Source: a virus (Duplodnaviria; Heunggongvirae; Uroviricota; Caudoviricetes). Taken from it: 4,449 nucleotides of DNA. The notes beneath the pieces are model-generated. The model ran no database searches. It was not told the origin of the DNA and was given only the letters and a program-made list of their open reading frames with translations. The position numbers were made by a program, and so were the translations under genes. Shown one piece after another: positions 150 through 3,491 of this stretch (its first letter is position 1; each line of letters begins with the position of its first letter). The stretch lies in the IMG/VR virus record IMGVR_UViG_2778261509_000009; one strand, given 5' to 3'.

Positions 150-455
150 TCACATCCAACTTTTTTGATAAGCGGAAAGTTCTCCAGCCATTGCATCCTT
201 GTAAAGTTGATGGGCTGGCCATGGATAGTCACTAAAATTTAGACATACTGAGTAAAACCCGTTGAGATTGGCTGGTTTTCCTCTTCTAAGGTGTTCATAA
301 ATGGCTGTTTTACCAGTACCTTTTCTTCCAAGAACCAACCAAGCCCTACTTTCAATAATATCCTTTATCGCCGGTAGCTTAAAAAAATAGGTCTGTAAGT
401 CCCGATCTGTTTCTGCTGAAACTTGAAATTCTGGTAGCCAGTCTCTAATGTCCAC
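150..455 (-). CDS. small Walker-A (P-loop) protein, 101 aa; possibly a truncated or minimal NTPase
   Basis: ORF from the six-frame track. GTG start at 455 preceded by a strong SD (minus strand reads GTAAAGAGGAAAAT-GTG). Translation contains LVLGRKGTGKTAI, which fits the Walker A pattern GxxxxGK[ST]. No clear Walker B follows and the ORF is too short for a complete ATPase domain. Coding sequence is AT-rich by eye compared with the replication genes. Confidence 0.55.
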   Translation of the reverse strand: MDIRDWLPEFQVSAETDRDLQTYFFKLPAIKDIIESRAWLVLGRKGTGKTAIYEHLRRGKPANLNGFYSVCLNFSDYPWPAHQLYKDAMAGELSAYQKSWM

Positions 456-1233: not shown

Positions 1234-2199
1234 TTATCCCCTGAAACCAGGCGGAATTTCTGTATCCGGTTCAGAAATATGATTCACACAACGCTGTACA
1301 GGTGAACGTCCCAAGCGGATGACCAGTTCGTCCCATTTTTCGCGGAGTTTTGACGGGCTCATGATGTTTTTTACCCAGAATGGATCTCGCTGTACCCGAC
1401 CAAACATTTCGCAAATTTGTCTGTGGCTTCTGCCATCCAGCATCCGCATTGTGCGCACGTCATTGGCCCAGGCTGTCCAGTTAGGCTCTTTTGGTCGCAT
1501 GATCTCTCCATCGTCGCTGGCAGCCTGTTCGTAAAGGTTCACGATCCGCCCCCAAATCCACTGCGCACACGCCAAATCCTCCCTGCTACCCCACTGGCGT
1601 TTTTTCGCACTAAACACAACCGCGTCGGGGTTCCGGGTTAAAAAATCCTGTTCAGCGGTCTGCGGGTCCGGTTGCGAAGCTTCCGGACGAAAAGTGTTTT
1701 TATTCTCTGTAGTAATCTCTGTTGTATTCTCTGTAAGATCATCAGGCCATTTTGACCCGATGACATTGGGTCGTTTTGAACCAATGGAGCGTTTCATTTT
1801 GACCTCTTCCATCGTGTCATTTTGACCTGATGGAGCGGCGCATTTTGAACCGATGGATTCGTTCAATTTGCCACCATCTAAAAGCTCGCTCCCATAGTTG
1901 ATCGTGTAGAAATTGGTCATATCGCGCTTTGATTTATTGAGCTTTTCACAACGCAAAAGCCCCAGCGTTTTCAGACTTGCAAACGCGCGCTTTAACGTTG
2001 ACTCTGACCAGAATGGGAACTGTTCCAGCCATTGTTCCGTTGTGTTGTAAATCCAGCGAACACCATCACATTCCATGCCGGAATTGGTATCTCTCAACCA
2101 GTAATGCAACTGCTGCAACACAATGGCTTCATTTAAGCCAATCTTCATCGCAAGCTGTGTGTTTATAACCAGTGGGCGTTCAGCAAAAAGAAGGCTCAT
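1234..2199 (-). CDS. phage replication initiator (functional analogue of lambda O; iteron-binding origin-recognition protein)
   Basis: Long minus-strand ORF. The origin-like repeat array lies inside the coding sequence and encodes a repetitive low-complexity linker (SIGSK..SIGSK..VIGSK, TENTTEITTEN), as in lambda where ori sits within O. N-terminal region (AMKIGLNEAIVLQQLHYWL...WSESTLKRAFASLKTLGLL) resembles winged-helix origin-binding domains. Gene order Cro, cII-position gene, initiator matches lambdoid early operons. The track ORF begins at a TTG (2253); I place the start at the first ATG (2199, MSLLFAERPLV...), which overlaps the upstream gene by 20 nt. The start remains uncertain. Confidence 0.8.
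   Translation of the reverse strand: MSLLFAERPLVINTQLAMKIGLNEAIVLQQLHYWLRDTNSGMECDGVRWIYNTTEQWLEQFPFWSESTLKRAFASLKTLGLLRCEKLNKSKRDMTNFYTINYGSELLDGGKLNESIGSKCAAPSGQNDTMEEVKMKRSIGSKRPNVIGSKWPDDLTENTTEITTENKNTFRPEASQPDPQTAEQDFLTRNPDAVVFSAKKRQWGSREDLACAQWIWGRIVNLYEQAASDDGEIMRPKEPNWTAWANDVRTMRMLDGRSHRQICEMFGRVQRDPFWVKNIMSPSKLREKWDELVIRLGRSPVQRCVNHISEPDTEIPPGFRG
1701..1736. repeat. three tandem 12-bp repeats (TATTCTCTGTAG / TAATCTCTGTTG / TATTCTCTGTAA); candidate AT-rich unwinding element of the origin
   Basis: Read directly. Period is exactly 12 bp. Immediately adjacent to the iteron array on the side that is downstream in the initiator gene's orientation, matching the lambda ori layout of iterons followed by an AT-rich region. 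Confidence 0.6.
1748..1863. repeat. iteron array: five direct repeats of ~23 bp with core CATTTTGA(C/A)C(N)GATGGA; candidate origin of replication
   Basis: Copies begin at 1748, 1772, 1795, 1818 and 1841 (spacings 24, 23, 23, 23). A degenerate sixth copy (CAATTTGCCACC) begins at 1864. The third copy diverges in its 3' half. Located inside the replication initiator coding sequence. Confidence 0.8.
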
Positions 2200-2701
2200 A
2201 ATTCCATCCAGCTTTTTGTTGGTATTGCAGTCGATACGCAAGTTTGAAAGCAATTGCTTTTTCTATAAGTTCGTCAGTTTCACGATCCACTACGGCAGGA
2301 TCAGCAAAAAGCAGTCCGGACTCCACCACATCGCCATATTCTTTGTTTAACCCGGCGATCATGTACGTGATGCTTTTTCCGTCACTAATTTCACGATACA
2401 ACCTGAAATCATTAATCCGGATAGCCTCCATAATTGCAGGCACTAGCGCCGTGAACTTTTCACGCTTATCCCTAGTGTCGATAGCCTTCCAGCGTTCGAA
2501 TATCTTCACTCGATTAACGCCAAGCGCTCGCTGATCAACCGCGCCACCTTCATCTGTGACACGCTGAACATCGATGTTCGGGCGCTCTTTCAAAGCCCAG
2601 AATGCTTCAGTGATTAATATCGTCGCCTGCTCCTGTGTCATTCCTGGTCGACATATCCAGGCATCCAGAGCCTCACGAGCCTGTTCAGGAGTGATTTTCA
2701 T
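2180..2701 (-). CDS. hypothetical early regulatory protein in the cII position (173 aa); possibly YdaT/CII-like, not verified
   Basis: ORF from the track with an ATG start at 2701. The start lies inside the last codons of the Cro-like gene (17-nt overlap; minus strand reads AATGAAAATCACTCCTGA), and the 3' end overlaps the initiator start by 20 nt, consistent with a tightly coupled operon. Functional assignment is by synteny only. Confidence 0.75.
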   Translation of the reverse strand: MKITPEQAREALDAWICRPGMTQEQATILITEAFWALKERPNIDVQRVTDEGGAVDQRALGVNRVKIFERWKAIDTRDKREKFTALVPAIMEAIRINDFRLYREISDGKSITYMIAGLNKEYGDVVESGLLFADPAVVDRETDELIEKAIAFKLAYRLQYQQKAGWNYEPSFC

Positions 2702-2912
2702 TGTTCAACCGCCCCGCCCGCTTCGTCTTACGATATTCGTCATAAACTTTGGGATCATACTGAAGCTCCCCGCCAGATGCCTCCTGTAGACGCATCGCGC
2801 GACCTTCAGGAACCAGTATCCCCCAAGCAGCAACACTTGCCAGTCTCACTCCTGCGGCATTGGCAAGCTTTGTTTTGCTGCCAAAAAAAGTAATTGCGTC
2901 AGCTTTAAGCAT
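2685..2912 (-). CDS. dicC: Cro-like small DNA-binding protein, DicC-type (75 aa)
   Basis: Translation MLKADAITFFGSKTKLANAAGVRLASVAAW...GRAMRLQEASGGELQYDPKVYDEYRKTKRAGRLNNENHS matches my recollection of E. coli Qin DicC and the YdaS/Cro-like family. Divergent from the DicA-like repressor. The track ORF starts at a TTG (2915); the adjacent ATG at 2912 has a consensus SD (minus strand reads AATAGGAGGCTTTG-ATG). Confidence 0.88.
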   Translation of the reverse strand: MLKADAITFFGSKTKLANAAGVRLASVAAWGILVPEGRAMRLQEASGGELQYDPKVYDEYRKTKRAGRLNNENHS

Positions 2913-2925
2913 CAAAGCCTCCTAT

Positions 2926-2943
2926 TGTTAGACTTTTCTAACA
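2926..2943. promoter_or_regulatory. operator O1: palindrome TGTTAGA-cttt-TCTAACA in the dicC/dicA divergent intergenic region
   Basis: Exact 7-bp inverted arms with a 4-bp spacer, read directly. The same palindrome recurs at 3437-3454. Lies immediately upstream of the dicC-like SD and overlaps the candidate -10 of the minus-strand promoter. Confidence 0.65.
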
Positions 2944-2970
2944 TTATTGTGCGCGGGATACCTAAGTCAA
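2943..2970 (-). promoter_or_regulatory. candidate sigma70 promoter for the Cro-like/replication operon: -35 TTGACT (plus-strand 2965-2970), 16-bp spacer, -10 AATAAT (plus-strand 2943-2948)
   Basis: Hexamers read on the minus strand. Predicted transcription start near 2936, giving a leader of about 24 nt to the dicC-like ATG. Operator O1 overlaps the -10 and start site. Not experimentally supported. Confidence 0.4.
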
Positions 2971-2992
2971 GAAAAATTAGAATTACCTAACT

Positions 2993-3400
2993 ATGGATAC
3001 AAGAACCCTAGGCCAGCGAGTTCTGGCGCGACGAAAAGAATTACGCTTAACACAACGAGAAGCTGCGCGCCTCGCTGGGGTTGCTCACGTCACAATTTCA
3101 CAATGGGAAAGAGACGAAACCCAGCCAGTCGGAAAACGATTGTTTGCTTTAGCGGATGCTCTGAAGTGCTCACCTACATGGCTAATGTTTGGTGACGAAG
3201 ACAAGGCACCAGTGCCGGCACAAGAACTTCATGTGGAAACAGAGCTAACTCCCAACCACAAAGAATTGATCGAATTATTCGATGCTCTTCCATCTTCCGA
3301 GCAGGAAGCCTTGCTGTCTGAAATGCGCGCAAGAGTAGAAAACTTCAACAAACTCTTCGAAGAAATGCTTAAAGCGCGTAAAAATAAATCAATAAAATAA
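2993..3400 (+). CDS. dicA: XRE-family HTH repressor, DicA-like (135 aa); prophage immunity repressor
   Basis: ATG start. Classic HTH region LTQREAARLAGVAHVTISQWERDE. Overall sequence (...GKRLFALADALKCSPTWLMFGDEDK...LIELFDALPSSEQEALLSEMRARVENFNKLFEEMLKARK) matches my recollection of E. coli DicA in length and motifs. Divergently arranged with the Cro-like gene. Confidence 0.92.
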   Translation: MDTRTLGQRVLARRKELRLTQREAARLAGVAHVTISQWERDETQPVGKRLFALADALKCSPTWLMFGDEDKAPVPAQELHVETELTPNHKELIELFDALPSSEQEALLSEMRARVENFNKLFEEMLKARKNKSIK

Positions 3401-3432: not shown

Positions 3433-3458
3433 TTTTTGTTAGACTAATCTAACAAAAA
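3433..3458. promoter_or_regulatory. operator O2: perfect 11-bp inverted repeat TTTTTGTTAGA-ctaa-TCTAACAAAAA (core TGTTAGA-N4-TCTAACA at 3437-3454)
   Basis: Read directly; arms are exact reverse complements. Same core and spacer length as O1. Sits between the repressor stop and the ydfA-like gene. Confidence 0.7.
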
Positions 3459-3462
3459 ACAC

Positions 3463-3491
3463 TTGCCTCTTATGTTAGGTTATTCTAAATT
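3463..3491 (+). promoter_or_regulatory. candidate promoter of the rightward operon: -35 TTGCCT (3463-3468), 17-bp spacer, -10 TAAATT (3486-3491)
   Basis: Weak hexamers (each about 4/6 to consensus), but flanked by O2 upstream and overlapped by O3, the arrangement expected for a repressor-controlled promoter. Low confidence. Confidence 0.3.
3473..3490. promoter_or_regulatory. operator O3 (degenerate): TGTTAGg-ttat-TCTAAat
   Basis: Same 7-4-7 architecture as O1 and O2 with one mismatch in the left arm and two in the right arm. Centre lies 36 bp from the O2 centre. Confidence 0.5.

Follow-up and report, generated by a model that had tools for sequence, protein, structure and literature searches.

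What kind of protein is encoded in the cII position of a lambdoid immunity region when its sequence does not look like CII? The question is raised by a stretch of 4,449 nucleotides (nt) of tailed-phage DNA (Caudoviricetes; IMG/VR record IMGVR_UViG_2778261509_000009), the whole of which we call the window. It holds an open reading frame of 173 amino acids (aa) at 2180–2701 on the minus strand, here called X. The original prediction, made from the sequence alone, placed X between a Cro-like gene and a replication initiator, left open whether it belongs to the YdaT family, and allowed that it might be a distinct lysis/lysogeny regulator. Members of the YdaT family are transcription factors found in the cII position of Rac-, CP-933P- and Qin-type lambdoid prophages, where they do the job of CII. 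The answer to the open question is yes: X belongs to the YdaT family by Pfam threshold, clade profile, hhalign and fold comparison, and the idea of a distinct regulator is thereby set aside. The best explanation, which we hold with considerable confidence, is that X is an intact Qin/mEp460-type YdaT member doing the job of CII in the cII position.

The position itself is as originally described. The window is the DicA/DicC-type immunity-replication region of a Qin/mEp460-type lambdoid prophage of E. coli, and its genes run dicA / dicC / X / O-like initiator / DUF977, that is, repressor, cro-like gene, X, initiator. This order, with the gene placed between a cro-like gene and replication genes in a lambdoid immunity region, recurs in 10 related loci.

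X is a real gene and not a chance frame. The original prediction did not state its strand; it reads on the minus strand from an ATG at 2701–2699, the first start codon past the upstream in-frame stop, to a TGA at 2182–2180, and RefSeq gives it the same boundaries. Against three diverged alleles the ratio of nonsynonymous to synonymous substitution rates (dN/dS) is 0.10–0.13 at a dS of 0.41–0.47, and X is thus under strong purifying selection. Other full-length alleles of 173 aa exist at 84–96% identity, and the N-terminus (MKITPEQ...) aligns with that of the family (MKIKHEH...). The true product is not shorter than 173 aa, a doubt raised at the outset.

The family search and the structure prediction suggested as checks on the original prediction were both run. 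The Pfam family YdaT_toxin (PF06254) matches residues 59–131 of X with 26.1 bits (E 1.2e-5), the gathering score being 21 bits, and a precomputed PF06254 match is present on all close homologues of X. When a profile was made from the clade of X and nothing else, the only PDB entries it retrieved were 8bt1 (E 5.2e-5) and 3c4r (E 4.8e-4). When the X clade was aligned by hhalign with the canonical Rac-type YdaT clade, residues 1–116 of X were matched with a probability of 98.4% (E 7.6e-15). The family phrog_163, 'CII-like transcriptional activator', matches residues 1–155 at 2.1e-40. A Pfam search of X at E up to 0.1 gave no match to the CII family (Phage_CII), and X is therefore a functional analogue only of lambda CII, which it exceeds in length, as had been noted (173 vs. 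97 aa).

Fold comparison agrees. The AlphaFold2 model of X, made from an 18-sequence alignment, has a mean pLDDT (predicted local distance difference test) of 84 and helices at residues 5–16, 23–36, 57–73, 77–97, 99–106, 111–130 and 135–164. In the model, the N-terminal ~106 residues form a YdaT/POU-like helix-turn-helix domain, with the five helices and the long alpha2-alpha3 loop of the family. The top four Foldseek matches of the model are YdaT structures, each with probability 1.00; the next match has an E of 0.78.

N63, R70, W71, L86 and P88 do not vary in any of the alignments, and A89 and I90 vary little or not at all. R70 and W71, on the presumed recognition helix, correspond to R57 and W58 of Rac YdaT. 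In the Rac protein, double mutation of H56 and R57 abolishes DNA binding (PMC11879457), and W58 is needed for the fold. The Rac H56 position is E69 in X, and because the YdaT of CP-933P also has no histidine there (KIF-RW), that residue does not define the family.

What does X bind? In Rac, the footprinted box is ATGATT-CATGAA-AATCAA, with the ATG of ydaT in the spacer; racR is driven from a reverse promoter within ydaS, whose 29-fold activation depends on this box (PMC11879457). In CP-933P, the YdaT tetramer binds TTGATT-N6-AATCAA at the ydaS/ydaT junction (PMC9986795) and activates the reverse promoter PRE933P toward the repressor operon (PMC8630535, PMC9986795). A candidate box in the same register is present in the window at 2691–2708 on the minus strand: TTGAAC-AATGAA-AATCAC, an imperfect inverted repeat whose 6-nt spacer contains the ATG of X. 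The pattern TGAWY-N6-RWTCA has a single exact match in the window, at 2708–2691. The box is a hybrid: its left half reads TTGAAC and its right half GTGATT.

The register around the start codon is common to 10 loci representing three clades, and the common core is nTGA(A/T)(C/T)-N6-...TCAn. Besides Rac, it is seen in 8 other diverged loci, the left half standing in otherwise unalignable upstream sequence. The left half-site lies between a Shine-Dalgarno-like run and the ATG, and in every case ATC is the codon for the invariant Ile3. Written as left half, spacer and right half, the box is GTGAAC-AATGAT-GATCAG in Citrobacter (L100), CTGAAC-AATGGT-GATCAG in a proteobacterial metagenome-assembled genome (L101), TTGAAC-AATGAA-GATCAG in Scandinavium (L102) and GTGATC-AGTGAC-GATCAG in L088. 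In Salmonella it is TTGAAC-AACGAT-GATCAC (L089 and L091), GTGAAC-AACCAT-GATCAC (L105) or TTGAAC-AACGAT-GATCAA (L106); here the start codon is 3 nt deeper in the spacer, and the spacing of the half-sites is unchanged. L083 and L084 have CTGATT-TATGGA-AATCAA, and L085 has ATGATT-TATGGA-AATCAA. In clades whose recognition helix carries N-R-(I/V), the inner bases of the half-site are (A/T)C; where it carries N-(Q/K/T)-Q, they are TT. Such a correspondence would be expected of a helix that reads those bases.

Some searches for further support were uninformative. When substitutions between diverged alleles were counted in sliding steps along dicC-X, no local signal appeared at the box, the alleles being too close to tell. 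The viral-contig relatives of X found by profile search were all at least 98% identical and of no use for comparison, and searches with P0086 and P0106 found no viral loci. A separate site deserves mention: a perfect 14-nt palindrome, GAACATCGATGTTC, lies at 2566–2579 inside X (codons P-N-I-D-V-Q), ~127 nt downstream of the candidate box. It reads TGAAC-N6-GTTCg, that is, two copies of the left half-site. Patterns of this type have 4 matches at up to one mismatch vs. 2.46 expected, and this one may be a secondary site or chance.

By analogy with Rac and CP-933P, X most likely binds the repeat at its own start and activates transcription of dicA. In the scheme we propose, dicC, X and the initiator would be transcribed together from a PR-like promoter once repression by DicA is absent, and X would be translated in step with its neighbors through the overlaps between the genes. 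The recognition helix (residues 57–73, with the invariant N63, R70 and W71) would then bind TTGAAC-N6-AATCAC across the gene's own ATG. Binding would activate a plus-strand promoter, antisense through dicC and reading into dicA, and the raised synthesis of DicA repressor would favor lysogeny. The activation step is proposed because it has been shown for the Rac and CP-933P proteins.

Several observations weigh against our reading of X and its box. A single-sequence search of the PDB with X gives only marginal matches to two solved YdaTs (E 0.05–0.07), so profiles were needed for that comparison, and no NCBIfam model matches X. The box of X has 3 mismatches to the canonical TTGATT-N6-AATCAA. 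At up to 3 mismatches the canonical pattern is not enriched in the window (5 matches vs. 3.76 expected), and the conserved codons M-K-I-T place a constraint of their own on the right half of the box; the case for the box hence rests on register and cross-clade comparison, not on counts. No consensus sigma-70 promoter is found on the plus strand in or near dicC, where a looser −10 scan gave only weak hexamers; for this reason the activated pRE-like promoter has not been located and none is claimed. Activator-dependent promoters usually have no consensus. Finally, hhalign leaves the C-terminal 57 residues of X, beyond residue 116, unaligned with the canonical clade, and the DNA-bridging model of the CP-933P tetramer may therefore not apply to X.

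This last point concerns where X differs from its better-known relatives. In canonical YdaT a single 29-residue C-terminal helix (alpha6) builds an antiparallel four-helix tetramer (PMC9986795). X is longer (173 vs. 140–141 aa) by a longer alpha2-alpha3 loop and a second C-terminal helix, and its C-terminus is modeled as a two-helix hairpin (111–130 and 135–164), so that its assembly may differ from the canonical one. Its candidate half-sites, moreover, have the form TGA(A/T)C where the characterized proteins have TGATT. Other long members of the family (P0086, P0102, P0106, P0111 and L100–L102) have in common a conserved motif, E(R/K)E.DE...A(Y)R, in the second helix, and some (the P0111 type, in L083–L085) keep the canonical box. 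It is possible, although we would put it no higher than a tentative suggestion, that X represents a distinct long-form branch of YdaT with a Rop-like hairpin in place of the tetramerization helix, a different assembly, and this altered half-site. If so, X could form, for example, a dimer with a four-helix bundle built from two hairpins; it would be unable to bridge two DNA sites as the CP-933P tetramer does; and the Qin-type CII analogue would be immunity-specific, without cross-reaction with the Rac or CP-933P boxes.

The C-terminus is also where the Salmonella homologues of X are unusual. Their zero-frame C-terminus is unrelated to the family, and the conserved C-terminal helices are found in the −1 frame. 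The −1-frame C-terminus starts directly after A_AAA_AAG in L089 and L106 and directly after A_AAA_AAA in L105, the codon position being the same in each: 3336–3342 in L089 (gene nt 336–342), 1836–1842 in L106 and ~1847–1853 in L105. A_AAA_AAG is a dnaX-type slippery heptamer. A −1 shift would yield a family-like product of 157 aa in L089 and L106. The N-terminal domains of the three alleles show clear divergence. RNA folding downstream of the slippery sites gave hairpins no stabler than those of shuffled sequences. The arrangement may reflect programmed frameshifting or transcriptional slippage, or it may be a pseudogene lesion that the alleles have in common; no such slippery site is present in X.

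The overlaps of X with both neighbors are as originally predicted. The ATG of X lies across the boundary between the fifth-last and fourth-last codons of dicC (AAT GAA), within the last six, and the two genes overlap by 17 nt (2685–2701, minus strand), identically in the diverged alleles L103 and L104. At its 3′-end, X overlaps the start of the initiator by 20 nt (2180–2199, minus strand), as it does in L096, L097 and L103. RefSeq gives identical boundaries and overlaps for dicC, X and the initiator in a 99.9% identical E. coli chromosome. Shine-Dalgarno-like signals are weak: GGGGCGG 7 nt before the ATG of X (2709–2715, minus strand), where it abuts the left half-site of the candidate box as the corresponding run does in related loci, and GGA 7 nt before the ATG of the initiator. 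The overlaps, the weak signals and their persistence in relatives are compatible with translational coupling, the implication originally drawn. Overlap with the neighbors is not a family trait, since Rac ydaT has gaps of 22 nt and 12 nt instead, and distant relatives have a 4-nt overlap.

Could X act mainly in replication, perhaps by partnering or regulating the O-like initiator, and not in control of the repressor? We think this very unlikely. In its favor, an overlap with the initiator is kept (20 or 29 nt) despite a swap of the replication module, and the C-terminal tail of X changes together with that module. The O157:H7 allele (L104, 2432–2983) encodes 183 aa and overlaps by 29 nt a different initiator, a DnaT-like domain protein; its tail is unrelated after residue ~160, the last ~12 residues of X being replaced. 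Because the tail differs where the initiator differs, the last dozen residues of X go with the replication genes. A mosaic junction thus lies within the 3′-end of X (L104 vs. window 2180–2220). The swapped tail is short, however, with residues 168–173 modeled as disordered, and its variability makes the downstream overlap look largely like a by-product of the module junction. Relatives from Rac, Salmonella and elsewhere have no downstream overlap, and they adjoin different replication proteins (DUF1376/YdaU, DnaT-like or DUF4942). Moreover, the characterized members of the family act on transcription.

The names given to X by RefSeq and Pfam suggest another alternative, a toxin-antitoxin pair of the YdaS/YdaT type in which X would be the toxin and the upstream Cro-like protein the antitoxin. 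X does sit in a tightly overlapping two-gene arrangement with a small helix-turn-helix protein, and over-expressed Rac YdaT is toxic (PMC11879457). But the toxicity of Rac YdaT is described alongside a strong effect on the host RcsA/B regulon (PMC11879457), YdaS and YdaT are Cro and CII analogues and not a toxin-antitoxin pair, and the CP-933P YdaT is non-toxic (PMC8630535, PMC9986795). The predicted fold of X is a helix-turn-helix DNA-binding domain and not a toxin fold, PADLOC has no match for X, and X sits within an immunity/replication operon. We consider a toxin role very unlikely. That X is a non-YdaT regulator merely occupying the cII slot, as its weak single-sequence similarity to the solved YdaTs, the want of an NCBIfam model and the unaligned 57 residues might suggest, is contradicted by the homology and fold tests and is likewise very unlikely.

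The genes around X fit a cII analogue's setting. The window is up to 99.9% identical to E. coli chromosomes, and in ETEC1738 its counterpart lies within the Qin prophage region, flanked by ydfW/ISEsa1 and dicB. Downstream of X on the same strand are the O-like initiator at 1234–2199 (phrog_391, 'replication initiation O-like', 2.8e-93; ATG at 2199–2197, equivalent to the ATG at which the RefSeq coding sequence of 321 aa begins) and a DUF977/Ren-like gene at 771–1193. Upstream is dicC, at 2685–2912 on the minus strand, which encodes the Cro-like regulator (NCBIfam DicC 3e-49; Pfam P22_Cro 1.2e-12; ATG at 2912, stop at 2687–2685, RefSeq coding sequence of 75 aa), followed by dicA on the plus strand at 2993–3400, the CI-like repressor gene (NCBIfam DicA 2.7e-67; Pfam HTH_3). 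A putative PR-like promoter for the dicC-X-initiator operon, TTGACT-16-AATAAT, lies at 2943–2970 on the minus strand; it is identified by consensus match only and is the sole sigma-70 consensus match within 2000–3100.

Between dicC and dicA is an exact palindrome of DicA/DicC-type operator form, TGTTAGA-N4-TCTAACA, at 2926–2943. A second exact copy (3437–3454) and a copy with 3 mismatches (3473–3490) lie downstream of dicA, before a DUF1391 gene. The window holds 4 matches to this pattern vs. 0.21 expected by chance; the match at 600–617 is not counted as an operator, and the other three are probably DicA/DicC operators. A preprint likewise inferred DicC binding sites flanking dicA on both sides. 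The best plus-strand −10-like hexamer near dicA is TAGAAT (5/6) at 2978–2983. As it ends 9 nt before the dicA ATG at 2993, the dicA mRNA would be leaderless or nearly so if this hexamer is used; leaderless-type mRNA has been reported for lambda cI and CP-933P paaR2 (PMC8630535).

Further features lie outside X. Within the O-like initiator gene, at 1740–1871, are five repeats of ~23 nt with a CATTTTGA(A/C)C.GATG core at 23–24-nt spacing, which look like origin iterons, as in lambda ori; adjoining them, at 1701–1736, are three tandem copies of a 12-nt unit, TATTCTCTGTAG. The left end of the window holds the start of a gene for a 'P-loop ATPase, Sll1717 family' (150–455, minus strand), found in ETEC1738 between the DUF977 gene and an insertion sequence remnant; bases 1–151 are outside the best genome matches, which begin at base 152. 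PADLOC has no match for the genes neighboring X or the ATPase fragment, just as it has none for X, and Rfam at gathering scores finds nothing across the window. A direct repeat at 2707–2727 and 2763–2783 (71% identity) was judged to be chance.

The finding is real but ordinary, since the protein is already annotated both as a YdaT family member and as a CII analogue. RefSeq calls it 'toxin YdaT family protein' (WP_000705348.1). Phage proteins 97–99% identical to it are called 'CII-like transcriptional activator' (HannyBb) and 'cII' (PhiR42_1), and it is also present in mEp460. A 2025 paper names YdfX as the Qin homologue of YdaT (PMC11879457). Only the C-terminal hairpin and the variant half-site of X's branch are mildly new. 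What the analysis means in practice is that X should be read as the Qin/mEp460-type cII analogue and not as a toxin, and K-12 ydfX as its truncated remnant; beyond correct labeling, it has little importance. The gene is nonetheless common: its DNA is matched in 2708 of 5426 complete E. coli genomes, with at least 80% coverage in 2121. As X is found in about half of them, characterizing its box, oligomeric state and effect on dicA would annotate a very common gene, and would reveal how far operator specificity and assembly vary within the YdaT family.

Among known systems, the YdaT of CP-933P (E. coli O157:H7; PDB 8bt1, with 3c4r a close homologue) resembles X in its long alpha2-alpha3 loop, in N...IF.RW on the recognition helix and the L.PAI motif, and in its slot between cro-like and replication genes with a 6-nt-spaced inverted repeat at the cro/ydaT junction. 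It differs in length (141 vs. 173 aa), in its single 29-residue C-terminal helix, which makes a four-helix tetramer where X is modeled with a hairpin, in its half-sites (TTGATT/TTGATT vs. TTGAAC/GTGATT) and in its partners (PaaR2/YdaS vs. DicA/DicC), and unlike X its gene does not overlap both neighbors.

The Rac YdaT of E. coli K-12 (b1358) is alike in family, in gene order and in having its own ATG in the 6-nt spacer of the box (ATGATT-CATGAA-AATCAA in Rac; the candidate TTGAAC-AATGAA-AATCAC in X). Only 21% of residues are identical between the two proteins, and Rac H56 is E69 in X. Rac ydaT stands 22 nt from ydaS and 12 nt from ydaU, whereas X overlaps on both sides. The Rac protein has been shown experimentally to be a tetramer and to have a host target, rcsA.

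Closest of all is YdfX of the K-12 Qin prophage (b1568), which is the same gene: over the first 280 nt of X the nucleotide identity is 98.6%, and the 17-nt overlap with dicC is the same. The K-12 protein is a truncated remnant of 96 aa, without roughly everything after residue 93, whereas the window gene is intact at 173 aa. In K-12 (ydfX being L092 2347–2637) the remainder of X has been lost from the Qin prophage, as have the initiator and the DUF977 gene, and ydfW is directly next.

Lambda CII, finally, lies like X after cro and before O, and X presumably plays the same role of activating establishment of the repressor. The sequence relationship of the 97-aa CII to the 173-aa X is undetectable, with no Pfam CII match. 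At lambda pRE, the CII site is TTGC-N6-TTGC, with 6-nt spacing, and it too lies at the start of the protein's own gene. The CII site is a direct repeat, whereas the candidate site of X is an inverted one.

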